64,000 bases of DNA from positions 1,798,001-1,862,000 of the forward strand of contig JAYWIR010000023.1 of the NCBI GenBank assembly GCA_036172245.1. The letters are read 5' to 3'. A program made the translations under genes and the position numbers. Origin of the DNA: Raillietiella orientalis. Lineage: Eukaryota. Under the pieces are notes generated by a model. It worked only from the letters and a program-made list of their open reading frames with translations, was not told where the DNA came from and did not search any database. Positions 409 through 61,591 of this stretch are shown in pieces; position 1 is the stretch's first letter, and every line of letters begins with the position of its first letter.

Positions 409-2619
409 CAGGCTTAAATCTTTACCATCATCATGTGGAATGACTAAATCAACCACGCACTACAACGTGAATGTAAAACTGAACAACCTTGCACTCTTGA
501 CAAAATAGTGACCTCGGAATGCGGACTTCAATTTTTACAAACCCTACTACGATCTGCGAGAGCGCTTCAGGAAATAGCAAAGCTTAAAGCAAGAATATTT
601 GTTAACTTTTCGTTTATATCAGTTACACATACAACATTTCATGATTCAGCACAAATATTTCAATTAACTATTGGTTGTTTCCAAAATCACTATTACTGAA
701 AGAAAACCCATGAGTAAACCTAACATATACATACTGCAACAATCACCCTTAAAAATTGTTCGTACAATCAAAAGTAAACCCAAAATACAAAACACAATAA
801 AATTTCCCGACAGAGAAGTATTCATTTGGGGACATTTACGATGATTCTGTAATTATGAAATTCTTTACTGAATTCCCTTCTTTCCTCACAAAACGTCAAA
901 ACTGTATATCTTGAAAACATTTTATTAAAGAGAATCTAAGATCTGCGAATTATTTCCCTAAAAATAGTACATAAATAATTCTGTGGAATCGTTGTGTTCA
1001 AATCGCTTACAAATCATACGCAAGTCTAAACCAAAACTAATCTCCTAATATTCTAATAATATGCATTTTCCATGCAAAACATTGAATACAACCTTTAAGG
1101 AATTTCCCTTGCAAAGAAAAACTGTTTTATGGTTGTTGCTTTTATAAACAAACCAAAGAAATTTACGATAGGTCAAATAGTGCTATCATTTTATTGTAGT
1201 TGTAAAAAAGATACATCGTATATTAAAAAAGTATATGTTAATAATCTATGATCATTTTCTGCAAATTTCCATCCAATACTGTTATATCCAAAGAAACATT
1301 TCTTATTTTAATATTGGTGCAAATTGCTCTCTTCCTAGAAATGCAGACTGCTAATAAGTATTAACCTGTATTATTGTTAAAGTGATTTTTTGAATTGACT
1401 ACTAAATTTCAGCAGTCTTTAGAAGTCATGCCATCAGTAGTATGCTGAATTAATGATCTCAAGGAATTTACACATGCATTAACGGATTTCAAATAAACTC
1501 TAAAGAAATTGAACATTTTCATGATAATTCAGGAAATGTAAAATTCACGCCAAGAAGTTAGTATGCATTAGTAAAGATTCGAAAGAAACCCATAGACAGC
1601 ACAGTATATAGTCCGAAGGCTATGGAAATTTCATGGGGTCATTTAAAAGGAATGAAATTCAATGTACTACTCCAACTTAATTTAACATTACTTCCAAATG
1701 TTAGACCTTTCCATTGATAGCGGTACGAAATGTTAAAGGTACAGTGTTATAAAAAAATTATAAAAACAATATTTTTTTTAAATAAAAACTGATAAAACTA
1801 GCCTTCTAAAATGGACTGTATTCTATGATGAAATATTCTTTAAAACGAAAAACAAAGGACGAAAAATAATGTGACATCTTATGGCACGCATAATTTTTAC
1901 CGTCTTGTACACAGTAAATCTCAAAATGCATTCATTCGTACTCATGCACCGATATATTAACAATTTAATTAACAGTAGGGTTTTGACCGACTATGGACAT
2001 TAACTGGATATTCAATGGAGCACTTGCATTAGGTTCTTGAAGGACACATGTTGAATTTGTATTTAGTTTTCGAAAATTACCTTTTCATTCATTCACCTCA
2101 AGCAGAGACCAGTATTCGGTAAAAATTTTAAACCCCTACCGCCTTTTTTTTTTGTTTCCTTATGAAGGGAAGGGTTATACGTGATTTCTGGAGGAATATT
2201 GTGTTTTAAGGAATATTTCATCATAGAATGCAGTCTATTTTCGAATGACAGTTTTATCAATTTTTTAGAAAAGTATTTTGTAAAAATTGGGTTATGCTAA
2301 CAAACATTGTACCTATATCGTTTCTTACTGATATCAATCGAAAAGCCGAAAGGGAAACATCGATATTCATAACATCATTATTTGAAAATTTATACGAAAT
2401 TTAAAACAATGTCTATATCGTAGTAACCATTTTTGCCTTGGTTCGTGAAATATTAGGAATATTTTTCATTCTGATGTTCGTTTCTATCAGTCTCACTTCT
2501 TCAAAAATTCGATTGTAAGTTCCTTTTGTTGAAACATTGTTGCGTTCTTTAATATCAATTCTCTTTGTCTAACGAAGACAGACACAAGATACTCAAGAAC
2601 TGTGATTTTTAAATAAGAT

Positions 2620-4026
2620 ATGACATCACTGCTTAGATTATGCTGTTGGGGAATTGAAGAGGATACAGATCAAACCAGTAGACAGAAAGCTGAAGATGAT
2701 AAACTGGAAGATATTCTTAAGCAGTTTCGAATTTCTGATGAACAACTCCGAGAAATAATGAAGATTCTTCTTGATGAAATCAATAAGGGATTGAAGAAGA
2801 GTACAAACCCTCTTTCCAGCGTAAAATGTTTTCCGACGTACGTTCATAACATTCCAACGGGAAAAGAAAAAGGAAAATTTCTGGCCCTTGATTTGGGAGG
2901 TTCAAATTTTCGTATTTTGTTACTTACTGTGGATGGACGCAAAATAGAATTTGAATCTGAGACCTATACCATGCCTGAAAGTCTGAAAACAAGCGCATCA
3001 AACAAGCTGTTTGCCTTTATTGCTGACTGTTTGGAAGAATTCATACACACACGAAGTCTTGAACAGGAAGTTCTTAGTCTTGCATTCACCTTTAGTTTTC
3101 CTCTGATACAAAGAGGAATTAAACGAGCAATTTTATTGAAATGGACAAAAGACTTTAAATGTCCCGGGGCGGAAGGTCATGACATAGTCCAGATTTTAGA
3201 AGAAGCATTAGCTACGAAAGGCTTGAAAGTCGATGTCAAAGCAATCATCAATGATACAACTGGATGTTTAATGTCCTGTGCAAGTCGCTATCCTACTTGT
3301 TACATGGGTGTCATTGTTGGTACGGGAACGAATGCTTGTTATATGGAAAAAATGGAAAATGTGGAACTGTATGAAGGCTCCAGAGAAAATAAGACAGAAG
3401 TCATCATCAATTTGGAATGGGGAGCATTTGGTGAAAATGGCTGCTTAAAGCACATACAAACAGAATTTGATAAAATTGTAGATAGAGCTGATGCACATCC
3501 TGGGCAACACATATTTGAGAAACTAATATCTGGATTGTATTTAGGAGAACTTGTTCGTTTGATACTAAATGATCTTTATAAAAAAAAAATATTTATGAAA
3601 AACAAGCCACTTCCGAAATTTCTAAAAGAACAGAATGGTTTTGATACGAAATTTATGTCCACTGTAGAAATCGACAAAGGAGTGACTTGGTCGAATACCA
3701 GAGAATTGTTAGAAGCACATTTTCAAGAGAAGAATTTTTCCAGAAGAGATCTGGAGATATTCCACAAAGTTTGCAAAACTGTCACCATGAGGTCTGCTTT
3801 TCTTTTATCAGCAGCCATTAGTACTGTGATAAATAAAATGGGCAGGACGCAAGTTACCGTGGGAATGGATGGCTCATTATATAGATTCCATCCTAGATAT
3901 CGCGAATATCTCTACGAAAAGATAAATGTTTTCAAAAATCCAGATATTCAATTTGATCTTCAACTAGCAGTTGATGGATCAGGAAGAGGAGCAGCATTAG
4001 TTGCAGCAACTTATGAGAAAGCTTAA
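2620..4026 (+). CDS. Hexokinase (single-domain, 468 aa), intronless
   Basis: Uninterrupted ORF with hexokinase motifs KCFPTYV, FLALDLGGSNFR, FTFSFP, WTK, INDTTG, GVIVGTGTNACYME, INLEWGAFG, FEKLISGLYLGE, DGSLYRFHP and DGSGRGAAL. An AATAAA overlaps the stop codon. Confidence 0.96.
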   Translation: MTSLLRLCCWGIEEDTDQTSRQKAEDDKLEDILKQFRISDEQLREIMKILLDEINKGLKKSTNPLSSVKCFPTYVHNIPTGKEKGKFLALDLGGSNFRILLLTVDGRKIEFESETYTMPESLKTSASNKLFAFIADCLEEFIHTRSLEQEVLSLAFTFSFPLIQRGIKRAILLKWTKDFKCPGAEGHDIVQILEEALATKGLKVDVKAIINDTTGCLMSCASRYPTCYMGVIVGTGTNACYMEKMENVELYEGSRENKTEVIINLEWGAFGENGCLKHIQTEFDKIVDRADAHPGQHIFEKLISGLYLGELVRLILNDLYKKKIFMKNKPLPKFLKEQNGFDTKFMSTVEIDKGVTWSNTRELLEAHFQEKNFSRRDLEIFHKVCKTVTMRSAFLLSAAISTVINKMGRTQVTVGMDGSLYRFHPRYREYLYEKINVFKNPDIQFDLQLAVDGSGRGAALVAATYEKA

Positions 4027-46346: not shown

Positions 46347-48897
46347 GGCTGTACCAGATACTCACAATGTTTTTCACAATGTGATGAGCAGTTGCAAATT
46401 GGCACAACTGTTACATTGATAATTGTTGGATAAGATTGCTGACTTGTAGGTGCAGTGTATGGAGGTTTACCAAAATAAAAGGAAACATGGATGCTATTGA
46501 GCTCGGTTATAAACATTATGCTTGGTTATCTTAATGACTACGAATTAACTTTCCATCTAACAAAATAGTCAAATCATACAGAATTGCATATGAAGTTTTG
46601 CAAATTGATGTTTCCATTTCACCATTCCCTATAAGTAAATATGTAATGAAAAAAATTCACTCCCTCTTGTGAGGATGACGAAAACCAATCATGATTGGGA
46701 AGTAGATGATGAGCAGGTGAAATGCTTGTTTCACTGAAGTGTTTATGCTTTTATTGCAATGTGCATATGGTGTTAAGAGGAAACTTATTGACTGAATTAA
46801 AGGCATTCAATGTAGATGCAAGACGAAATTCTCAGCAAAGTGGACTTTGAAAACGCTGATTATTATGTGGTTAGCAAACCTAAATTCCTAGGCAAATTAA
46901 TTGCCCTAATTACCTAAGGAAGGGTACATATTAATATTTCTATTTGTATATTTATGTGTGTGGAACCATATTTATGTATATGCATGTGTATAAACAAACG
47001 TACATATATATCGATGCATACGTGCTGTAATTTTGCATAACATTCGCCACTTTTGCTTTACTTACATAAAGGATTCAGCAAGTACCACTATCATAGAAAC
47101 CCGAATCATGCCTTACAACGATCAAAATCAAAGATGGTGGAATCTTCAAGAAATACGAAGAATTATCTGCAAACAGCTACACAATCTAGTTATCTGGGAA
47201 ATTTTGCAGTGTCTTTGTAGAATGCTCGTTAATTGTGTGTTATGAATGCAATGATAATGGTTGTGAGTTGCTTATATTAAATACATACACATACTTACAA
47301 ATAAAAACATCATGCTTATGGTATGCGAAATACTATTCACATTTAATTCAATACTTAACACAATATGTTTCAGTATACTAAAGACACAGAATATCCAAAT
47401 AAAACATCAAAAGTTATGATCTGTGGACTAATGAACAGTCACGAATCATAAGTTTTCTGTTACAAATTTATGCAATGTACCAAGGTAACTCGTCACTCCG
47501 TTTTTCTACATTCCCGAAGTTAAAAGAGGACCAGTGTTTAAATCAAAATTCCGAACATTTTTATTTATTTATAAATTACTTTTTTATTCGAACTTGAAGC
47601 TATTTGAAAAGACAGCTTAGAACTTGAATTTAATATTTATAGGTCCATGATTTCCATCGTTTAGAATAACTAAGGGCTCCGGTGTATAACCCTCCGGTGT
47701 TTCATGTATTGCAAGACACCGATAACCTTATCTTGCCAGTACGAAATTCCAACTTAAATTTTGAGCCAGTCATTCTGTAAAGTTTATTCTGAAGCATATC
47801 GTTTGTATATCGAATATTTCGATTCACACTAAAAAAAATTTACTTGTGACAACACTGCATGTTCTGTTTCGAAACTCATTAGTCCAATTTTTATATTTTT
47901 CATTATCATTGATATCCATTCCCTCAGTTCACTATGAAAGATAAATTGATGAATACATCTCCATGCCATGGCAAGGTCCATCCTTTCCTCTTTTCCCTCA
48001 TTATCAAGAATTATTTCCTTTGGGTCGTAAGCATTCTTTTTGTATTCCTTTTTGTATTACTTATTTGAGTACTTTAAATCGATGTTCAATAATTTTTGAA
48101 AGCAAGCGCCGCAAACTATGACCTTATTTCCTTTACATCACTTGCTTATTCCACCCTATTCCGAAATTCTAGATGTCTCAAAGTTTCGAATTATAAGCCT
48201 GCACTTTGAAATCATAAAGCAGTTAGAAATCAAAAGAAAACCTTAATGCACCGCAGCTAGTAAAGTTCTATTGAACTGCTCACGAAAAATGACAATAATC
48301 ACATTATATATAATCATTTCCCTTAACAGATTATCAGGATGGACATCCATTCGTTCGAATTTGCTTGACAAGCGAATTTAAGTCTCTCCAGAAACCACAC
48401 AATTCTTAGGTGCAAGCAATAGGAGAGATAAAAACATCATTCTCGCATTTAGGTTATGGATCTAGAAGGAACTTAAATTTTGTATCTCAATGGCAAATAC
48501 AAGAGCTAACATTTGGAAATCTGCATTGCATATGCGTTAAGACTGCGACCTTTAGGTCATGGGAGAATACTTCCTGCATCACACCGCCAGGGGATAGAAT
48601 TCACGAAAATTCCTATCCTGCAATGCGACTCCCCATTCGCTCTGGTGCATTTGACTATAATCGGGTTGAGAGAAGGCTAAGCGGCACATCGCAATGAAGC
48701 TTAAGTTCCCTAGGACCTACTCCATCGGTTTTCCGCCTTTCAGTCACTATAGTGTACCGTTTAAGTGGCGTGTGGGGAGTCAGAATGGCCTGCCTAAAGA
48801 GAGTAGCATCCGCAAAACCGTCGTCCTCTCCATCACCATGACGATGCGGCGTGCGAGTTGCCCTCGAGTTGCGCCCAAGCAACCAGGACACTGCAAG

Positions 48898-50772
48898 TCA
48901 CTGCAAAGGCAAGACACGGCAGTCATTCGGATGGACAGGGGAATCCGCCAAGGAGACGCCCTTAGTCCGATGCTGTTCGTGGTGTACATGGAGGTGGTTT
49001 CATCACTGGTCCACTGTGGCGGTCGTCTGCAAGGAATACGACTTGACGACGACAGACTGACGCACCTGGCGTTTGCGGACGATCTGCCCTTCTTCCTGAA
49101 GGACGAGAGGGATCACCATGCGTTCCTTAGCGTCGTCGAGTCCACGGAGAGAGGTCTGGGCTTGGAGATCAGCGTCCAGAAATCCCAGCTATTGCCTATT
49201 GGAATTCTGGACCTCTCCGCTTTAACAGAGACAGGATTCCGAGTGGTTGACCAAATCAAGTGCATGGGAGTCCACATCGGCGCTGCCTCGGCTTCGCAAC
49301 GGGTGTGGAAAGAAATTCTGGGGAAAACGAGAGAAGAGGCTGCAAAATACGTCCGACGCGACTTTTGCCCGAAGCAGAGGGTAAACCTGTGGAACGGAGT
49401 CCCCCTTCCCAAGGTGCTCTTCGGAGCAGCCTTCTGCCGACTGGACGAGCGAACGAGCAAGGAGGGGGAACAACTACAGCGAAAAATACTTTGGAATGAG
49501 TTCAAGCCGCGAGTCAGGCTAAAACTGTTGTGCGGACCTCGAGACAAGGGCGGGACAGGGATGAAATCCGTGGATCTGCTGGACGTGCGACAAATCCTGG
49601 ATCTTGCCACCAAATGGGACAAGTGGCCTTATGCAGCGCACACAGCCTACTTGCAGTTGCTCAACAGTTCGAGAGGCCTGATGACTGCCCTAATAGGCAA
49701 ACAAGGACAGTGGGGAAGCATCGATCCCACTTGGAAGCGCAAGCAGGCACTGGTGAACACCCACCATCTCAAAATAGTGCCTAGAAGTAAAGAAATTTGG
49801 AGAGACGAACTGGTAAAGATCATCCCGTGCTTCCTGCGCGTCCCTTGGGACACCAGAAAGTGGATGTTCGACAGGCCAAGGATGACCATCAAGGACTGCA
49901 AGCGGTTCGCCACCAGTGGCGACCGCAAGAAAATGCGACTGTTCTGCCCCAACAAGATGATGAGAAGATTTACCCACAAATATCGAGAGCTCTGGACAAA
50001 TCAGGAATCCAAATGCTGGCGCCTGATCACCAGAGGAAACATCCGACAAGCAGTGAAGAAGAATCCAGACGAGGACGACGCTCTGTCTGTGGCCGCCAAG
50101 GATTGCGGCTGGAACCTGCTTGCGGTTGGAACCACGGTCTGGATGAGAGATTTACCACCCGAGACTCAAGATGACCTCCTGATGTTTTATTGCGGAGGCA
50201 TCCTTAGCGGCACGAGGACGAGACACTGGCCAGGGAACGCGCAAGACGAGATGTGCAAGTCCTGTGGCGCCAGGGAAACCCAACTCCACGTGCTCACCTG
50301 CCCGACGCTGCGCCGGGACTAGTCCAAGCTGAAGGAGGTGACAGGCCTGCAGAGGATGGACAAGATGGAGATCCTGGCAGCGATGTTTGAAGGGAACGGC
50401 AACGTTCCTCGATACAACCGTATGGTCCGCATCACCATCGCCCTCTTTATCACGAGCAAGCATCGTGGTGAGAAGGGCAAAAATGCGGACCGGAATAAAC
50501 AGTGTGCCAGCTGTGGAAATACTGAAAGGTCTAGTTAAAAGGGAAATAGGCATCAGAAGTTGTGGAGGCATTCCCACCTGGACGTACTGTTACATCCTGC
50601 GAAGGATTCAGGAACATAGTCCAGTAAGTGAATTCCCCATGCAAACTCAGTGAGTGGATGCCCGAAGACCCACCCTGAAAGTGAAAAACAGTGAAAACCA
50701 GTGACATTACAGAACACTCGTATGAACGAATGTTGAAAATAAACTCACCCCACCGCAAGTCGGACTGGGGAA
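48898..50772 (+). mobile_element. 5'-truncated non-LTR retrotransposon (L1/Tx1-like ORF2: RT, thumb, CCHC finger) with 17-bp TSD
   Basis: GIRQGDALSPMLF, LAFADDL, ISVQKSQLL, IKCMGV, LCGPRDKGGTG and CKSCGARETQLHVLTCP. In-frame TAG at 50320-22, then a frameshifted continuation to 50653. Flanked by identical AACCAGGACACTGCAAG at 48881-48897 and 50773-50789. Confidence 0.88.
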
Positions 50773-50949
50773 AACCAGGACACTGCAAGCAGCGGGGCGA
50801 ACACGCTTCCCCCCCCCCCTCTCCCCCATTCATCCGCTCCCCTGTTGTTCGATTTGGAAGGAATGCAATGTGAAACAGAAGACACCTAAGTTCTTGTAAA
50901 GTAAACTCTCCGGAGAAATCTATGAAAATTCTAGCCGCCTACGCACTGC

Positions 50950-51450
50950 CCGGTTTCCTGCACTCGTGCGTGCGTACAGGAGTGCGGAGTACCGGTAATC
51001 GGTAGGTCGGAAACAACTGATCACAGAAGCGGAAAGAAAACAGTTGAGGGTGTCAGGGAAGGTGAGGGGGAGGGTGCAGGAGTTCTTGGGTAAGAAAGCA
51101 GCGGTCCTTCGCGCGCACTCTGCTCCTCCAGTAGTGCGTAGAGTCAGTCCAAGGACAATCAATCCCACGGGCGCGCGGAGGCTGCTCCGTTCGGTTTAGC
51201 TGCGAGGTCGCCACGCGCACCGCCACGCCACCGGGTCGCAATGCGCGCCGCGGCGCTGAGCCCTCTCTTCGCAGGCGAGAGAGCCCTTCCGGCATCGTTT
51301 CTCTTGCGGCGAGAGACGCCAGTGGCTGCGATACAACGCGAATATATGCGGAGGGGCTGTGCGGTGTCTTTCTTGGGTCCTGTGGCTGGCAAACCTTCTC
51401 TTTCCTCCGTTCTCTCCCTTCAGAGAAGAATTCAAAGAGTTCTTTGTGCA
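50950..51450 (-). mobile_element. Possible decayed apurinic-endonuclease fragment of a LINE
   Basis: Minus-strand pieces LAARET (~xxLQET), RPGGVAV (~RGVAIL) and LTLRT...ARRTAAFL...PTDY (~YT..SRIDRxFL...SDH); frameshifted. Confidence 0.3.
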
Positions 51451-52399
51451 TGAGGAGCTCGCCCCATTCCGCTTCATTGTATTGTATTTTATTTTTATTA
51501 CTATTATTTTTTTTTAATGAACCTCTCTCGAGTCCTTCTCCCCATCCTAAAGAATCACTCGTGGCATCCGCCCTCGTGTCTATTTATTCACCGAACTCGC
51601 ATAACATGAACACGTCTGTTTCTTCTGAGAACCTGAGCGAGCTGACCGGCTTGCCTCAGAATGACAAGCCTTTTCGGTCTCGAACCTTTTCGGCAGCCGT
51701 GGCAACCTCCGGCTGGGAATTTCCCTGTCTCGCTGCATTCTCAGCTCTGGCACTTCGTGCATCCTGAGTTCTGGTGGGAGTGAAGGGCGCGGCGAGAGGC
51801 TGGCGGATTTTCCCTTCAAGAAGGGACGAGAAGCGGTAGCGTAAAGTTCAAAGAGGATGCTGGAAAGGGCACACCAACAACGGTGCGTGTGTGTGTGTGG
51901 AGGGGAGCTCTCCGGGGAGGCTCGCAAAGGTTTCTTTTGGAAAGAGGAGCTCGTCGAAGAATAAGGCACCCTTTTTTTTTTGGTTCGTCAAGTATGGAGC
52001 TCTTTAACGCTGTCCACGCCACCCAGGGGTGCGTGTCAACTCTTCAAGACAGGGGGTGCCCGAGAGGGAACCACCCCATGAATCCAGGAAGGCTACGGAG
52101 GAAGGAGTCTGTTCCTCTCTCACGCTTGGGAGGGAACCCAAAAGGAAACCTCTTCCTTATTCTTTCCGGAAAGACCCCCCCGGAGGGGGTCGCTCCATCT
52201 TATCTTCTCCGGAGAACGCACAAGGGAACTTTTTTTTTCTCCTCTGAAGAGAACCCCAAAGATTGCTTCCTGAAAAGAGCAGTGCTCCTCTTGATGCTCT
52301 GGAGAGACATCAATCCACCAGCTCCATGGTATGCGAGGGAGGCTCCCCCACCGAGGAAGCAGAGGGAGGGGGGCGGCTCCATTTTCGCAACCAGGGGGG

Positions 52400-53116
52400 G
52401 AACCTGAAGGCTCCTGGATATCCTAGAAGGACCCTGGAAAGTCAACTTCCAATCCCGACCGCTCAGCGGGGGCATCCGGGGGTATCTGGCTTCCACCAGT
52501 GAGGCCTCCCGTGCAACGCCCGCCGGCTTCATTGGACACGGGGCAGGTGTGCTAATCATGGCAGGTGAGAGGAGCAGGAATCCGTCCAGTACCTCTTAGT
52601 GAACTGTGTTGTCCTCTGGCCCTTTTGAGGACGCTTTGCTGCTAACCTTGGAACCCCCGGCGGCAATCCCGGAGACGTTTTCAAGCGCCTCTTCCTGCGC
52701 GACGCCCTAACGCAGGATCGTGGCGGCCTGGAGCAGCAACGACAGAGGAGGTCAGAACGACAGGGACGTCATCTACTGTGCTGTCCTCTTCATGAGAACA
52801 GCGTCAAGATGGCCCCACCTGGGAGTCTCGAAACAGGAACTTGCCGGTATCCTGCGAAGGATTCAGAGGACGCCCTCCAGAATCCGGTGATCCCTGCCAC
52901 CCCCCCATTTTTTGACTGCATTTTTTGTTTCATTTTTTTTTTCTTTTTCTTTGTCTTCCCTTATCCTGTACTGCTGAGGCGAACCCCACTGACCTGCGTG
53001 CCGATTCTCGGCAGGTTCCTTCTCGTAGTTATAAGTAGCGTGGCAGGATCAAACGTCCTGCTACAGACATGTATGTTTATTTTTTATAAATAAACGCCCC
53101 GGCGTGACTGGGTATC
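52400..53116 (+). mobile_element. 3' fragment of an L1/Tx1-like element, paralogous to 58100-58772
   Basis: Shares ggcctcccgt(g/a)caacgcccgccg, cctcttcatga, tcaagatggccc, aaacaggaacttgccgg(t/c)atcctg, a T-rich UTR and terminal hairpins with the 58 kb copy. Confidence 0.8.
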
Positions 53117-54954
53117 AACCAGTGCCGCACCCGAATGCAGGTCAACCGGCGCTATTTTGCATAGGGGACTCGAACGCACGACGCACCTTTTTCTCTGGCG
53201 TGGATACTTCCTCTGGTGGGATTCGAACGGTGGAGCTTGGTGCCACCACGCGCGGAGACCGCAGCAGCCAAACGCGGCTGCCAACGCGGGCCATGTGGCT
53301 ACGATATGTTCATTTTGGGAGGAAGAGAGAAGGAAAAAACAAACAATGACACTGCGGGGACGAGGGGGGCGGGGGGCACGGGACCATGAAGAGACTGCCA
53401 CCTTGCCCGTAAAGGGGTTCCGGTTGGGGGGTGAAGCAGAGACACCGAAGGCGGAGACGAGTGTAGGGAGGTCAGTCAGGAAAATAAAGAAATAAACAAA
53501 CAGCTGAAAAAGAAGAAGAAGCAAAACAGACAGTTTTTATTTGCACAATAAAAGGAAAAGGAAGAAACGTCATCAAGGACTTTGCGAGTTGGGCATTAGC
53601 AGCCTTTCGGCATTCTGCACAACGAAAAGGGAGGGAGGAAGGGGATGGGAGAAGAGAGAGATAGAGAGAAAGAAACTAAAGGAGCACGAAGATAGGAGGT
53701 GCTCTGCCGGAGAACGAAGGGTGGCAACCATACCTACCCTATTTTCTGAGCTCCCTCTTCAGACTTCCCTCCGGCTTCGCTTCCCGATCGGCAAGGCTTC
53801 CTCCACGCGAAGGGAGAAACTTGTCCGGGCAGGGGAAAGAGCGATGGTTGCCCGAGACCTTCGCTGGGAGGCAGTCAAGTCTCAGATCACGCGTGTGTGT
53901 GCGCCACCGTTCACGAGGACGCCAGGAGGAGGAAAGGTACGAAAGGGCCATCGGATGCTCGTGCAAGGACGCGGGTAAAGCGTCTCTGGGGCAAAAGCAT
54001 CTCCGAGACCGGAGAGCGAAGCATCCCGGAGTCCGTAAGCGGAGGAAAGACCGCACCCGCGCGCCGAAGCGACGTGTTCTCTCAGGAAGGTCCGAAGACT
54101 CGTGGGACGGCGCGAGGACAGGCACATGAGAACGCAACCCGGGGGCCACAGCTTGCATCCCGAGGGCAACCTCCACTAGCCCAAGCTTGGCGCAGGAGAC
54201 TGCGTCTCGTCACGTGGGCAGCCCCCAATCAAAACGCGTGCGTATCCTTCCAGAGGCAAAGTTCCCATGCGCGCAGGTTTCCCACTCAATTGTGGCCAGA
54301 GCATTCATTACAAAAAATACATCCTTGTGTATTTTTTGCCACCCGCCTCGAACCTGCTGAAGACCGGTACGGTGAGGTCCGCTTCGTCAGCGTGGGAGAA
54401 GAAGGGAAAACCAAAAACAAAAAGGGGAGGTATTCACTTGGCAAGGGATGAGAAGGAGGTGGTGGGGAACCGAGGAAGGGATCTCTGCCCGCTGCGAGGC
54501 ATTTTCTACATCCCTTGTCCAAGATGCTGACAAGTTCCTTGCCATGTGTGGCCCAGGTGGGGTCACCTCGAGGAGGTCTTCAGGAAGATCCACGCCCAGT
54601 GGATGGCTTCCCTGTCACTTCGGCCTCTTCCTGAGTTTTAGGCCGCCAATATCTCGCGAAGACAGAAGAGAACTGAGAGGGATGCGGCCACCGGGCAGTG
54701 CGGCACGCACGGAAAGGCGTCCCTGGGGCCGCCTGCCCGGATTCCAAGGGTCGTCTCTAGGCGATCCCGGAATCTAGGCACGAGGGTACTATGAAGAAGA
54801 GGGGCGTTTTCCGGATGCTCGATCTCTGGACGCACGCGCCTCAGTTCGGATCTCCGATTTCGTTCCAAACTCCTCTAAGCATGTAATCTCTGCTTCTTCG
54901 AGTCAGATGGCGTCTCCTAGGTGCTCCTCCCCCTGCTCGGGAATCTTCGAAAAA

Positions 54955-55648
54955 TATGGGCTGTCACCTTCACTTCCAAGAGGGTCACAGCCACAGGGTG
55001 CACACCCCCAGCACATTGAACCCATGATTATTAGCCTCACAGGCATCACGCTTGTCACCAGTGACAACAGGTTTGCAGCGACAGCGGCCTCCATCATCAC
55101 CCTGCAGGTGCTCTAAGCCGACAGGATCACAGCTGCAGGGTGGGTATTAACCATCACTGCGCCGAAAGTCCTGCTTGCAGAGCTTACAATGAGGGCCATC
55201 TGTGCTGCCAGCGCAGTCAATGCAGCGACCACCGCGGCCTGTCTTCCCATAGAGATCTCTCATAGAGACTTTTCCATCTTCGATCCCATAGAGAGCGAAG
55301 AAGCGCGCTGGGCACGGCAGCTGCAGTTGCATGCTGAACATTCTTGGGCATCCGTGGCAGTGGACCCGCTCCAGAGGAGATCACTGTGCAGGGGCGGGCA
55401 CTCGTTGAATTCGTGGCCCGCAGTGCTGTGCTCGCAGATGCACTCAGGCGAGGAGCTGTCGTCAAAGGTGGGAGACCTTGACCTATGACTCGGAGGTGCG
55501 GCCATTGGCCTCGCACCTTCCTTCTGCAGCGGACTCGCCGACAGCGCAGAAGTAGGATTTGAGCGCTTTGTCGTCTCTGAATGGTTCATCGCCAAAGTGC
55601 TCCAGCACGATTCGGATGCGGGTCGCGGTCGCTCATTCCTGGAGCTCT
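54955..55648 (-). pseudogene. Laminin gamma-1 (LanB2/LAMC1-like) gene fragment: end of the LN domain plus laminin-EGF repeats 1-3/4; intronless, with stops and frameshifts
   Basis: Minus strand, across frames: ELQE*ATATRIRIVL; FGDEPFRDDKALKSYFCAVGESAAEGRCEANGRTSE; CICEHSTAGHEFNECPPLHSDLLWSGSTATDAQECSACNC; LYGKTGRGGRCIDCAGSTDGPHCKLCKQDF; CSCDPVG...GRCRCKPVVTGDKRDACEAN; GCAPCGCDPLGS. These are collinear with laminin gamma-1 'LQEWVTATDIR...[36 protein letters not shown]...LY..TGHGGHC'. Confidence 0.85.
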
Positions 55649-56299
55649 TTTCTATTTATTCATTGTCCCCTCCCTCCGTTTCTATTTTTTGGAAGCCAGA
55701 CGGTGTGCCGGTGGTTATCCCGATGGACTCTTTTTTTTTGGAGGGGGCATTTCTTGTGTCTCGAGAAGAGACCCTTCTACCCCTCTAACCTGTAATTTAT
55801 TTTTTTAAAATAAACGTACCTGCGTAACCGGGTTCGCTCGGCAAACCGGTCGAAGCAACGACTCCCCCACGGAGCATCTCCCGAACGCACAAACCTCAAG
55901 CGCCCATGCCATCGCGCCCAAGTGGGCACTCTAGCAAGGAGGAGGCACGCGTGATGGCAGGAGGGCACGGGAGAAGAACGGAGGAATCCGTCGATTCAGT
56001 TTGCGACTCCCTGAGTAGGCTGGCACCGTCCAGCACTTCCCCCTGGCACGCTTGAGTCTCTTCGTAGGGCCCAAATCGCAGCGATCTGGCGATCTGCTTC
56101 TGCAGAGTCAAGTTCCAAGATGGTGGCATCCCGGTTCATGCTCTTCCTGCTTCCCACGTCCTTCCAGCTTTTTCTTTTTTTCCCACCCGATTCACTGAGA
56201 GCCGTTGCCCCGTCCCCGCCATGGAGATGTCGGAGACGGCTCGACAACGCGGCCACGTGGGGGCTCGCAAAAGTGTAGTCAGGCGTTGCCGTCACCGTG

Positions 56300-58772
56300 G
56301 TTTCGTGTGTTCTCTCCGTCCGATGCCAACTTGGATGAACTACGGTCGGGAGTGGGATCAAACAGGATCCGAAGGCACAAGGAGGAACATCGTCACTTAT
56401 TTAGCAAAGGATGTCCTCAGTTGATCCACGGACGGCGCGATTATCGTACTCTGCAAGTAACGCACCGCAATTCGTACTGTCCAAGCGTGTATCTTCGACT
56501 GCTTCCACGTGGTTCCAAGTCGTGGATCGCAGAGCTTTTTTTTTTTTTGCTTTTCTGGACCGAGGTTACGTTGCTCATCTCTTTCCCCTACATCGTCCTC
56601 TGCACCGATTCGTGGTTGCAGTGCGTCGTGGGTTAGAGTTCTTCCTGCGAGATGGCGCTGGCCGTCCTCCTCCATTCATTCGGGTACCGCACCGGTAGCT
56701 GTTTAAACAGGATGCCCCCGATGAGGGCCGGGAAAATGGGAATCGACCTTCGGATTCTTCCAGGAATCAAGGATTGGGGGGGGGGATTCCCCCTCCGGTT
56801 GTGCAAAGGAGTGGACCCCCTAGTGTGTCGTAGTGATGGAGTCGGTGTGTCGCGACCTCTCCAGAGAGTGCAAAGAAGCGAGCCGATCCCTTCTTGGAAG
56901 CTGCGCCCTTCCGGATTTCGGAAGCGCCCCTTCGGTGCTCCCTTCAGAGGAGGAGTAAAGAGGAGCGATTCCTTTCCCGGGGGACCAGTCCGGAGAAGAA
57001 ATTCCTACCAGAGGATCATGGGTGCGAACTGAGTCTCGCACTGATGCAGAATGCTCTTGCGCATCCATCCGTCGGCTCGAAATCCTTGGACGACTGCTTG
57101 TTCCCGATCATTTCCTGGGCCTCGAAGAGAATCGCGCGGTGTCCACCTTGCTTCCAGTTCACCCGCTCGCGGCTTCCCCCGTCCTAGAAATGGCTGTGAG
57201 ATGTTTCGGAGGTTTCGGGAGACTGAGGTTGCCTTAGAGTCTACAGAAACGCAAGTGGATCTCGATGCCGAGCTTGCGAGTTTTGATCCCAGCAACACTC
57301 TTGCATGCTGCACGAGCAGTGCTTTTTTTCCTTTCCTTTCTTTGCCACCGGTGTGTGCAGCAGCGTTCGTCTCGAGCATCACCTCTCAGCGTCTCAAGTC
57401 GGGAGCGCGGCCGCAAAGTCTTCTGCTCCACCAGCGACGACAGGATGATCTACGTAAGGCTGGTGGACTGGGCCTCCTTACTCTGGAGCGGATGGAGCCT
57501 CAGCTCCAATTCCAAAACTCGCACTGGCCAGCTTTGGACTTCGCCTTGGTGCACTTTGGCAAGAATCCTCGCCAAGCGAGCAACCGGCTGCGAGAGATTG
57601 ACTTCGGTCGTCGTGGCCACCAAGCGGAGTTTGAGCCATCCTGGCTCTCAACTTAAGCAAATGGAAGTCTTGGTACAACGAAATCCCTGGATCTCCATCC
57701 TCTCCACAAACTGGGCTACTTGGCTGCATGAGTTCCGTTTCCTCGTTGGGTAAAATCGACGGCACGAGCGAGGCAGAGCGCATCTGCCTACGCAACAACA
57801 GATACACTCGTCAGTCGTTGAGGGAGATCCTAGGTAACACAGGAATCTGCTTTGGGCGTCGCTCACCCCTCTTGCCCCAGTGCTCTACGGGAGGCAGGAG
57901 ACAGCGAGAGACCTTCCGGCAAGGTGGGAGGTGACGTATCGAAATATCGAAAATAGAAGAAAACATCTAAATGCGTGGACAACTAGGGAACTGAACGATT
58001 CTTCCACCCCGAATGTCCCTCTTAAAGGACTGCTACGCTGGGGAGGACTACTAGACATACCTCTGGGTGAGATACAGTGGCCCCTAGAGTGCTGGGACAG
58101 TGCAACCCTCCCCCAAAGTGGCAGAAGTCAGCGATCCTTCTGTTGCATTGGGGCCTCCCGTACAACGCCCGCCGACACTATTGGACCCGAGGGAGTGTAA
58201 GCCCCAACTGCAGCAGGTGTGGCGAAAGAGAGCCCCTCCTGAACCTGCTCGTGGGTTGTGTTGCCCTCCGCCCCCTGTGGGAACGCTTTGCCGCGTCCCT
58301 GCGGATCTTCGAGGGCAACGCCAGAGACCTGAAGCACCTCTTCCAGCGGGACGTCCTCACGTCGGCCGCATCCCCAGCAGCTGCCTACGCAGCGGAACCG
58401 TGGCTGCATGGAGCAACGCCAGGGGAGGCCACTACGACATGGCACCATCTATTTTGCCGTCCTCTTCATGAAGACTTGACTTCAAGATGGCCCTATTTGA
58501 GAACCTTAAAACAGGAACTTGCCGGCATCCTGAAGATGATGCGCTCCGGCACCCTGTGATCCCTTCCCGAACCCTCCCATATTTTGTATATATTTTTCTG
58601 TTTCATTTTTCCTTTTTGTTTTTGTTCTTTCCCCTTCCCCTCTGCTACAGAGACAAACCTGCGCCCCGGTTCCTTTTAGTATATTTACAACGTGGCAGGA
58701 CCAAGAGTCCTGCCACTGACTTGCATGTTTATTTTTTTATGTAGATAAAACGCCCCGGTGTAACCGGGTGTC
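56300..58772 (+). mobile_element. Decayed L1/Tx1-like ORF2 C-terminal half and 3'UTR
   Basis: Ends in LLLHWGLPYNARRHYW...CSRCGEREPLLNLLVGC (zinc-finger region)...WPYLRTLKQELAGILKMMR*, then a T-rich UTR and hairpins. Many frameshifts; the 5' boundary is approximate. Confidence 0.72.
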
Positions 58773-60445
58773 AAACCAGCGACGACAAGCAGAGAGGGCA
58801 CATGAACGTCGGAATGGTCGCAGGGTCGGTACAGGTCGATTAAAGCTGGGACCGGCTCTCTTGGATTTCTTTTCTCCCGTGTGGACTCCGGTTGGTCCAT
58901 CCCTCCGGCTCAGAAAGGGAAAAAGAACCCTTCCGTTTTTCGTCACGTTTTTGGAAACACGAATGGATCACATCGCATTGGGCCCACAAACACCTCCTAC
59001 CCCCATAAACACAAACTGGAGACGGACGACGAAATGCCTCGTGGCTGGACACGTGACGTCGAACGCCGTGCAGGCGACGTGGAGGCTTTTTCCGCGATCC
59101 AACTGGCAGTGGGGAGCTCATTGAATGCCAACACCTATAACGTATGCATGTAGGCGATGAGGAAACCATCTTGAAAGCGGAGCCTTGCACGCAGAGAAGT
59201 TCTTTACCCGCATGAGTCACACGCTTTCTTTCCTCTTGACCTCCCTAGTTTACAGGTCGGATCCCGAGCGAACGCCCGAGCCTTCCCCAGCATGCGATGA
59301 TGGACCCCTTCGTGAGTCCTGCTTCCCTCACGGGTGGATTCTCGAGGGTGTTTCAGTGGCTGAGGTGTTTCCTTCTCTTTGAGGCTTCGTCTTCTTTATA
59401 AGAGCACCTTCTCATAAAGAAGGCGATGGACATCGGCGGTCATGCTAGGGACCTTCCTTTTCCCGCCGAAAAGTCCGCTCAGTATCTCTGCACGGGAACA
59501 GAAATCCCTCCGAGGCATCCGGCTAGCCTGCCTCGGCGCGTCCCAGTCTCGGATTCGTGCTCGGCGGATACGGACTCCCATGCAGAGTCGGGTCATGCGG
59601 TGGAAGGGGATGCGTTCCTCTTTCCTCCTCACGACTCGCGGAAGCTGCCGTGAGGGTGCGCCATCCAACGGCGAGGATCTCACACCACGCGGAGGGCCCC
59701 ACGACGGAACGCCCCGGATTTCGGGCGGCAGGTTCGACTTCCAGTGCTGTTCCAATAGCTTCGCGATTTGCATGAGCACCGTCTCGCATACGCGAGCGGT
59801 CCAGCCCCTAACCGGTCACTCTTGTCTGCGTGCATTCTTTGATATCCTCGTTTGTTACAAGGGATCCTTGCACAGCTGGCGCGTTTCCGTGTGCCTCACA
59901 TGCCTTTGGGGCAGTCGCGTGACGTTGCAAGCTGCCCACGCTGCCATCTCAGCTCTTCTTCGCATGCACGCTTTTTTTTTTTCGTGTTCCAAGAAACATG
60001 AAAGAACCCGAATCATGGCCTATCGTGGCTCACGGCTAAGACAAATGGCATCACCGAAGCAGTGGTAGCAGGGCCATCAGCCTCACGGTTCACTGATTGC
60101 ATCTGCTTTGGCTTTTTATGCAATATTTGTACTCTCTGCACCTAAGGGTGCGAAGTTCACACATGCTTCAATTTATGGATGCCATCCACGTGCCTCATAT
60201 TAATAATAACATACTCTATAATGCAGCAATGGCTGATGAGACCATCTGTCTTTGTGAGAGTTGCTGAAATTTAAAGACCGTGAAAGAACAACGACAGTGA
60301 ATCACAGTTCATTCGTTTTGTTTTTTTTACATGAGAGCTCACTTTGGAAGCGGATGTGAACTCACATCAATGGTAGTGACAGCAGAGGATGCATCCCAGT
60401 GACGGCGTTGGCAAGTGTGGCCTCTCCCGATCCGGGCCATGTATA

Positions 60446-61591
60446 TGTTACGGTTCAATAATAATAAATCCGGTTAGTATTAATAATTTACCAGCTACTA
60501 TTAATAATAACTAAATAAAAAGGTCGAAATGAATCATAACACATAATAATTACATTTACCGGTAAATATTAATGATTACCAGTGAAACCTAGTAAATTTA
60601 ATAAAAACATGTTTTATAATATTTCTTATTAAAACACACATGCATTATTTATTACACAGACAAGTTCTTGACAAATCCAAGAAAAAGAAAAAACAGCCTT
60701 GTGAGAAAAATTATACAAAATTGTGAGAAAATTATACAAATTAGTTAAAATATTGATTTTCATAAAGGTAGGAGAGGAATGGCATTAATAAGAGAAGAAT
60801 TTCACGTTATTGTAAACAAACTATTTATTTTTGCAGGAAGAGCTTTTGTGGCATTTGGAATCACAAAGGATTTTCGACTTTTTACGTTGGCAGCGATTTG
60901 AGCTCCAATCGCCTGTACAATCGCAATGTTGGTATCCCTGACCACCTAAATTGGAATTCTCTCGAGAACATTCTCTTAGAGTTATTGCAATATCTGGATC
61001 TTTATGAACTGAAGCAAAAGTCTCCTTGCAGACGGTAAATTCAGTCCTTGTACAGAGCTGGTTTAAAATGCCATGTTTTGTACCGAATTCATACAAGTTT
61101 TCCATTTTCAGTAGAAATTGCAACAGCCATAATATTCCCGGTTATCTGCTTTAGCCCCCTATCTGAACCTGGACTCCCTATCCGGACGCTTTCTCCTACA
61201 TCCGCCATTGGACATTTAGTCTTCGGAAGCCGTCACATTTTTTCAGCTTCCCTTCTCAGTGGCTGCTCAGCAGAGTTTCGAGCTTCTTGAATCGTTTCAG
61301 AGATTCCACGAGTGCAAAAGAAGAAGTATCTTCCTTGCTTTTTTCACGATTTTCCAATTCAACAGTTGGCAATATCTTTTACTCTGTTATCTTTCTTATC
61401 GACCTTTTCTGTTTCAGAAGGTTCGTCTTTTGATTCTAAATTATTACACTTACCACTGACTGTTGTGAATTATTAATAATTACCGATTAATGCGGTAAAT
61501 TCTTATGAATTATTCACTTTGGCCTCTTTATTTGGTTATTATTAATGATAGCTGGTAATTATTAACCCCATTCATCACTTGAACCGCAGCA
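60446..61591 (-). mobile_element. Ginger-like (Ginger2/Tdd, KRBA2/SCAND3-type integrase family) internally deleted DNA transposon with ~90-bp imperfect TIRs and TATA TSD
   Basis: The left end TGTTACGGTTCAA...ttaataatttaccagctactattaataataactaaataaaaagg matches the reverse complement of the right end, TGCTGCGGTTCAA...ttaataattaccagctatcattaataataaccaaataaagagg. TATA flanks both ends (60442-45, 61592-95). The minus strand retains the Cys-rich C-terminus GTKHGILNQLCTRTEF...GGQGYQHCDC...NRC..KKSKILCDSKCH.SSSCKNK*. Confidence 0.85.

Follow-up and report, generated by a model that had tools for sequence, protein, structure and literature searches.

Folded 3' tails and probable family-specific targets in a nest of L1/Tx1-like LINE copies of Raillietiella orientalis

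Between 48.6 and 60 kb of a 64,000-nucleotide stretch of the Raillietiella orientalis genome (hereafter the window, carried by a host assembly of 210 Mb), the GC content rises from ~0.33 to 0.55, and four diverged retroelement ends lie inside this island. The hexokinase of the host finds its best solved matches in animal enzymes, which marks the host as an animal. A preliminary description of this DNA attributed to these ends a common A-rich signal, a GC hairpin and the junction AACC(A/G)G, and suggested a single Tx1-like family with a structured 3' end and an AACCAG-type target preference. The question raised by the locus is whether the four ends share one origin and one target, and what the common features represent. 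We propose, as the explanation that is on the whole likely, that the GC-rich island is made up of nested copies, dead and 5'-truncated, left by a radiation of L1/Tx1-like LINEs that is specific to this host; the elements would move by stringent-type target-primed reverse transcription (TPRT) into targets that differ from family to family, a Tx1-like behaviour. The features on which the argument is based are listed below (TSD, target-site duplication; RT, reverse transcriptase).

48881..48897, plus strand: 5' TSD copy of copy 1 (17 bp)
48898..50772, plus strand: copy 1, a 5'-truncated LINE of lineage alpha (Pfam RVT_1, E 3.5e-12; translation)
50738..50772, plus strand: tail of copy 1, with AATAAA, a bulged hairpin at 50748-50770 and a short A run
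50773..50789, plus strand: 3' TSD copy of copy 1 (17 bp), starting AACCAG
51996..52501, minus strand: 3' part of the SINE-like repeat X, host of copy 2, including the 5' TSD copy at 52495-52501
52502..53117, plus strand: copy 2, a 5'-truncated, decayed LINE of lineage beta, family B, antisense in repeat X
52970..53112, plus strand: tail of copy 2, with an upstream branched stem, a 9-10 bp stem at 53040-53064, AATAAA and a terminal hairpin
53118..53291, minus strand: 5' part (head) of repeat X, whose plus strand starts with the 3' TSD copy ACCAGTG
54300..54768, minus strand: fifth LINE end, lineage beta, family E, with a decayed tail (tblastn 54763-54554)
55645..55836, plus strand: copy 3, a ~190-bp 3' remnant of lineage beta, family C, ending GGGTTCG
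56618..57005, plus strand: second, incomplete copy of repeat X, unoccupied at the family-B site near 56690-56700 (inverted pairs)
57430..57442, plus strand: 5' TSD copy of copy 4 (13 bp)
57443..58774, plus strand: copy 4, a 5'-truncated, decayed LINE of lineage beta, family D (tblastn)
58775..58787, plus strand: 3' TSD copy of copy 4 (13 bp), starting ACCAG

The four ends, and the 9-bp stem upstream of two of them, were found where they had been placed, and their reading as ends of L1/Tx1-like non-LTR elements inserted with TSDs holds: ORF2 domains or matches were recovered, and duplications of 17, 7 and 13 bp flank copies 1, 2 and 4, with 9-16 bp in their relatives. At copy 1, AACCAG does begin the 17-bp TSD (48881-48897 / 50773-50789), as proposed. 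The TSDs of copy 2 (7 bp, 52495-52501 / 53118-53124) and copy 4, both of which start ACCAG, had been overlooked, as had the fifth LINE end at 54300..54768. Copy 1 retains the C-terminal half of the RT, the thumb and a C-terminal Cys/His motif in a reading frame interrupted at ~50320 by a stop and near 50458 by a frameshift; it is 58% identical to a full-length relative (tblastn), and its left flank is essentially single-copy in the genome. Copies 2 and 4 match residues 1060-1194 and 824-1194 (E 5e-56) of the beta ORF2, respectively (tblastn). No TSD was found for copy 3, and the search for its empty site with the single upstream relative L149 gave no continuation. Rfam returned no credible known structured RNA or ribozyme in the island (four weak matches) and placed none of the window copies inside an snRNA gene.

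Other groupings of these copies were considered and rejected. Copy 2 resembles a solo LTR (TG...CA with a 5-bp ACCAG duplication), a reading contradicted by relatives that vary in 5' length and encode ORF2 remnants. Copies 2 and 4 are not the two ends of one 5.66-kb element, since each has its own TSD and its own family. Nor do families B and D represent a fixed-length non-autonomous element: their common starts are the ends of the queries, longer copies reach the RT, and the copy lengths defined by TSDs vary.

At the level of families, genome searches returned one separate repeat family for each window copy. The proposed single family thus gives way to four families in two lineages, alpha and beta, whose ORF2 are 26% identical. 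Copy 1 belongs to lineage alpha, the full-length members of which (~5.6 kb) carry a CCHC ORF1 and an endonuclease-RT ORF2. Lineage beta includes, in decayed form, copies 2, 3 and 4 (families B, C and D) and the fifth end (E); families B-E align with the C-terminal part of a beta ORF2 of 1,199 residues. An N-terminal AP-type endonuclease (PF03372) and an RT (PF00078) are found in full-length relatives of both lineages, the window copies holding only C-terminal parts of ORF2, and some young families have uninterrupted ORF2 frames of ~1,180-1,200 residues. One locus (L116) that looked like an element with ORF1 antisense to ORF2 consists of two elements placed head to head. The ORF1 proteins match zf-CCHC with E values of 1e-5 to 6e-3; CCHC zinc knuckles in ORF1 are a feature of the Tx1 clade. 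The best match among solved structures is human L1 ORF2p (E 7e-54; R2, E 1e-22), and most homologues that carry a name are L1-like or TX1-named proteins of plants, fungi and vertebrates, at ~25-36% identity. A quick RT tree of 53 rows unites alpha and beta in a clade of their own (SH-aLRT 95) and sets them apart from the single TX1-named fish protein, in a topology whose deep forks are poorly settled. Because of this tree and of the best solved match, we use the label L1/Tx1-like and leave Tx1 membership aside. Judged from their sequences, the elements belong to the L1/Tx1 group: they combine an AP endonuclease with an RT nearest to that of L1, and they show 5' truncation with variable TSDs, the signature of TPRT.

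The common tail module stands for three of the four ends. A pattern made of ATAAA, a hairpin arm and AACCRG matches 53086-53122, 55810-55849 and 58745-58779; copy 1 lies outside it, having a hairpin of another type (CCCCA-CCG-CAAGT-CGG-AC-TGGGG). The pattern gave four raw matches against a shuffle mean of 0.20, with none of 100 shuffles as high, a count that shows non-randomness only, since the pattern was written from the ends themselves. The predicted fold of the beta tails comprises an upstream branched stem, a 9-10 bp stem, AATAAA and a terminal hairpin. When nine beta tails of 130-150 nt were folded, seven had z values of -2.3 to -4.3 and two were near -0.7; the tail of copy 2 scored -2.3 and that of copy 4, which carries the stem at 58692-58716 and the terminal hairpin, -3.9.

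The covariation that such a structure would entail, suggested earlier as a check, was found among the tail copies. In 25 distinct, hand-picked rows from eight families, 92% of the cells were paired and 36 had changed on both sides, which none of 500 shuffles attained, this control ignoring relatedness; slid controls reached at most 17 both-side cells and a score of at most 0.107, against 0.24 observed. Three beta families fix different compensatory pairs in two inner stems, the family-level changes including C-G to U-A in E and A-U to U-A in F1-F3, and the inner upstream helix shows two pair exchanges. Underlying the covariation are ~8 pairs and only a few independent events at the level of families. 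The terminal hairpin hardly varies (one both-side cell in the 25 rows) and gives little information by itself, and the alpha hairpin, different in sequence, has one covarying pair on one branch. The compensatory changes between families argue that the 3' tail is a conserved RNA-type structure; a conserved 3' stem-loop with such changes is a trait of stringent-type LINEs, and it is strongest here in the two beta inner stems. The G-U compatibility of stem changes had been taken as a sign of selection on RNA structure. It is seen between the two window copies and is lost within families, where one-sided stem changes break pairs more often than they preserve them (30 breaking against 13 G-U compatible in 33 B copies; 13 against 5 in 15 D copies). 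These changes, mostly C>T and G>A, appear to reflect the neutral decay of dead copies. G-U compatibility is set aside as proof of selection on RNA structure.

Loops are family-specific, one of them being common to 24 of the 33 B copies. The tails lack poly(A): at the junctions examined, runs of A count five residues at most, and the long poly(A) of relaxed mammalian-type L1 is not seen. The end of AATAAA lies 23-32 nt from the target in five examples. As regards a possible SINE partner, many X copies end CATCAT(C), like the ATCATC of family E, but without hairpins.

What follows the hairpin differs between families. A single family whose tail is selected copy by copy and whose one target is AACC(A/G)G is an account that we regard as very improbable. 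It would agree with the TSDs of three of the four window copies, which start (A)ACCAG, with the ACC that follows the junction at 7 of 13 family D ends, and with the AACC found within 9 nt of the hairpin at 12 of 27 family C ends, where the bases may be tail or target. It is opposed by the four families in two lineages with 26% ORF2 identity, by the excess of stem-breaking changes within families, and by the junctions themselves: among the best-scoring 20-30 loci of each search, AACC(A/G)G occurs at 1/26 alpha ends (from the best-scoring 30 loci, the one being the window's own copy 1), at 0/20 young beta ends and at 1/13 family D ends, and it is within reach at 1/27 family C ends. At copy 3, AACCGG (55844-55849) is located ~8 nt beyond the usual family end, with no TSD; in most relatives of this copy, flank begins immediately after GGGTTC(G) or GGGTAAA. 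AACCRG is present 12 times on the plus strand of the 11.4-kb island, or ~1.6% per 15 nt, so that the motif at copy 3 may have arisen by chance. The junction sequences do not support AACC(A/G)G as a target common to the four ends. In family D, where four of the five recovered TSDs begin AAC, they suggest a weak preference for ACC, and no long fixed target was found for families C and D at the sampled loci. Family E has ATCATC at 15 of 20 ends, possibly a short repeat tail; many X copies end in a similar way.

A fixed target is seen in the family of copy 2. Repeat X, ~800 bp long and SINE-like, occurs in the window both filled (51996-53291, minus strand) and empty (56618-57005). Its head (53118..53291, minus strand) contains GTTCGAATCC, picked out by eye, which we take to be a B-box-like motif; concerning a tRNA origin, four X loci gave no Rfam tRNA match, and relaxed ARAGORN calls were scattered and inconsistent. 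A 99% copy of window positions 56089-56975 is present in the genome. In the 30 best-scoring family B loci, chosen by element body, 26 ends were located, and 20 of these run into the right arm of X, antisense and at one site, while at 12 of the 30 loci the left arm of X meets the element at truncation points that differ between copies. Of the 104 exact B ends in the whole genome, 56 are followed by CCAG. Among the window families, only B appears to be ACCAG-specific, and ACCAG would be part of a longer fixed site in X. The AACCAG-type preference proposed for the locus is therefore strong in family B and weak, as ACC, in D, and it fails as one shared target.

The same junctions bear on an explanation without targeting, in which segmental duplication, or a composite element (a LINE together with a SINE or part of a host gene) moving as a unit, would account for the fixed neighbours and hairpin self-repair for the stems. 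Recent duplications do exist (the 99% copy of 56089-56975 and the near-identical locus pairs L132/L137 and L157/L158), and filled X copies differ from the sampled empty X just upstream of the site. Such an origin nevertheless seems scarcely credible, given that many different truncation points, with a TSD, adjoin one and the same left arm of X, that B copies are only ~78% alike, that loops are family-specific and conserved (24/33 B copies), and that the insertions at KAFD codons described below split different host families, again with TSDs.

Relatives of the window copies likewise appear to aim at different fixed spots, each according to its family. Among 26 alpha ends in the 30 best-scoring loci, four lie in U1 snRNA at nt 22/23 (Rfam U1), with a whole U1 before the first unit in two loci, and seven are antisense in the gag-like ORF of another LINE, where tandem copies have the duplicated site between them. 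The endonuclease domains within this lineage are 59-88% identical, yet found at different sites. The young beta set comprised 20 loci, chosen by protein similarity and long frames. In F1, 7 of 11 ends enter the ORF2 of a relative, antisense, at codon 274-275, and the remaining four share a second flank, read as the head of the next copy. In F2/F3, seven of eight ends are antisense at the KAFD codons of the RT in several host families, and one is in sense, seven codons before KAFD. Three of the four 5' junctions fetched show the rest of the host RT (the sequence window taken at L262 missed the junction); in one of the three the duplication is exact (15 bp), and the other two show mismatches at the same site. 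Under the rule applied in PMC4494074, a target preference requires that one repeat type make up over 20% of the flanks; family B (20/26), F1 (7/11) and F2/F3 (8/8) all exceed this value. The flanks downstream of the hairpins, earlier proposed as a test, have no AACCRG in common and show a preferred target in B, F1 and F2/F3.

We hypothesise that these elements move by target-primed reverse transcription and that ORF2 grips the folded 3' tail in the stringent manner, the constant stems providing the shape and the family-specific loops the identity. AATAAA, 23-32 nt upstream, would set the RNA end directly after the terminal hairpin, and copying would start on the initial A residues, one to four in number, which would leave a short A run at the end of the copies. 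The site would be picked by the endonuclease of each family. AACC could then be composed of the last A's of the element and a target that in many cases opens with (A)CC or (A)TC, a weak common core to which each family would add its own part: the X site in B, a loose ACC in D, and U1, gag codons, the EN-RT linker or KAFD codons in the young relatives.

It can also be imagined that the RNA sets the site, with read-through donor flank pairing with the nicked target and the endonuclease giving a loose A/YC core; a family would then inherit the target of its source copy. The copies without poly(A) are compatible with this idea, as are the tandem arrays, which keep the target directly behind each copy, and an R1Bm study reportedly provides a precedent for pairing of read-through RNA with the target. 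It is also favoured by a pair of alpha subfamilies whose junction sequences differ although their tails are the same and their endonuclease domains 88% identical. On the other side, one of these subfamilies is known from one locus only, and AATAAA lies 23-32 nt before the junction, and RNA cleavage is expected at such a spacing, while F2 enters the same codon in hosts whose synonymous sequence differs a few bases away. We consider RNA-directed siting unlikely and prefer site choice by the endonuclease of each family. Similarly doubtful is a bolder proposition, that of poly(A)-less LINEs which share one folded tail, switch sites fast and have specialised on other retroelements, including catalytic RT codons, and which in its boldest form has read-through RNA pair with the target.

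The zebrafish elements ZfL2-1 and ZfL2-2 and the eel element UnaL2 belong to the L2 group, another group of LINEs. According to PMC4176376, the stem of the zebrafish elements is recognised generally and the loop specifically; by analogy, the family-specific loops described here fit such a recognition. As in ZfL2-1, ZfL2-2 and UnaL2, the 3' stem is conserved and the loop family-specific (PMC4176376, in part); unlike their single stem-loop, the beta tail has three to four helices over ~150 nt and one to five terminal A's. A structured tail in the L1 clade is itself already in print: excerpts of PMC3472496 and PMC3747384 describe, in a monocot L1-clade lineage, a conserved 3' hairpin common with maize and sorghum SINEs and backed, as here, by compensatory changes, most plant L1s ending in poly(A). 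That lineage differs in its plant host and in that these excerpts describe no sequence-specific targets.

Tx1-clade families that target transposons and snRNA genes are also known, from PMC4494074 and PMC4640811. The former reports Tx1 in Tx1D, Keno in U2 genes, Tx1-Mar in Mariner-N4_AMi, Tx1-8_Crp and Tx1-4_AMi in LTR elements and Tx1-9_AMi in Harbinger. The elements described here resemble these in their AP-type endonuclease, TSDs and family-specific targets, including transposons and snRNA genes, as well as in the fixed position and orientation of the insertions and the tandem copies around a TSD. They are distinguished by the targets themselves, a SINE-like repeat, coding motifs of other LINEs and U1; in the portion of PMC4494074 concerned, U1 figures only as a head sequence, and the targets in the figure legend are U2, U5, 5S, satellites, microsatellites and transposon superfamilies. 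The sister families of copy 1 occupy a fixed nucleotide of an snRNA gene, sometimes in tandem, like Utopia and Keno (PMC4640811, in part), with U1 in place of the U2 insertion by which Keno is defined. According to the same source, reports of elements in snRNA genes had by 2015 been confined to Keno and Utopia (both U2) together with two DNA transposons, Dada-U1 and Dada-U6. Our literature search, which ran outside Repbase and most subscription journals, found no non-LTR targeting of a SINE-like repeat, of U1 or of coding motifs of other LINEs.

Of the proposals made for this locus, that of a single AACCAG-targeting family is the less well supported. Changes of target specificity in APE-type LINEs are hard to study, since close relatives with different targets are rare. 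This genome offers a ready comparative set, in which tail recognition, endonuclease choice and RNA-DNA pairing can be set against each other; its value lies in tails that vary in the loop and keep their stems, and in sites that differ among young families. Should the boldest form of the argument be true, the family would be a naturally re-programmable inserter. Why retroelements form GC-rich nests in this AT-rich genome would be explained by targeting of the SINE-like repeat, of U1 and of coding motifs in other LINEs.

Inserts of F2 and F3, young families of the beta lineage of L1/Tx1-like LINEs, lie antisense at the KAFD codons of the RT genes of other LINEs, and several host families are concerned. 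The inserts of F1, a third young beta family, are likewise antisense; in a related family, they lie at a single codon within the endonuclease-RT linker. The loci, fetched from the genome for comparison and designated by L plus a number, are as follows.

Antisense inserts of young beta families in other LINEs
L252/L260, L253/L261, L256/L263, L251, L254, L258, L259: F2/F3 at the KAFD site
L240, L244, L245, L247, L249, L250, L257: F1 at the linker site

At L255, a family other than F1 occupies a position ~27 codons beyond the F1 linker codon. Among the beta relatives, an ORF2 at L241:504-4100 (minus) is an open frame of 1,199 codons, in which the RT motif reads YAND, in contrast to the YADD of its relatives.

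The second lineage, alpha, includes families located at U1 snRNA, where a whole U1 stands before the copies and U1 from nt 23 is found behind each unit.

Alpha copies at U1 snRNA
L105:2581-8273
L106:2007-7696
L117
L114:2240-7430

The first ~20 nt of the L114 copy are themselves U1, which may reflect another U1 insertion point or a U1-derived head. In a further alpha copy (L113:2417-7846, minus), ORF1 and ORF2 form a single, stop-free frame of 1,810 codons.

A common sequence of ~50 nt following ATCATC is shared by 6 of 20 ends of family E, a group of beta remnants, and by one copy of the SINE-like repeat X.

Loci with the common ~50-nt sequence after ATCATC
L150, L152, L159, L161, L174, L177 and L098

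This sequence is either a preferred target or a 3' flank that was carried along. Repeat X copies filled by an insert of family B (L120-L145) differ from the sampled empty copies (L082-L104) in a few bases directly upstream of the site, which suggests either that family B struck a single subfamily of X or that there is a bias in the sample of empty copies.

The window also carries two host genes, whose long uninterrupted frames indicate that they are intron-free across these stretches.

Host genes
2617-4026: hexokinase, uninterrupted frame of 469 codons
26407-29040: HECT ubiquitin ligase, uninterrupted frame of 877 codons

Two 50-nt inverted arms (60488-60537 and 61509-61558), 84% complementary and 971 nt apart in AT-rich DNA, look like those of a non-autonomous DNA transposon. 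A GC-rich stretch (54953-55640) separates the remnant of family E from that of family C; elsewhere in the genome it has a single further match, which is patchy (L149). An 887-bp stretch at 56089-56975 has a 99% identical copy ~77 kb further on the same contig (L062, C23:1930998-1931885); the pair is a recent duplication within an otherwise old nest of LINE copies.
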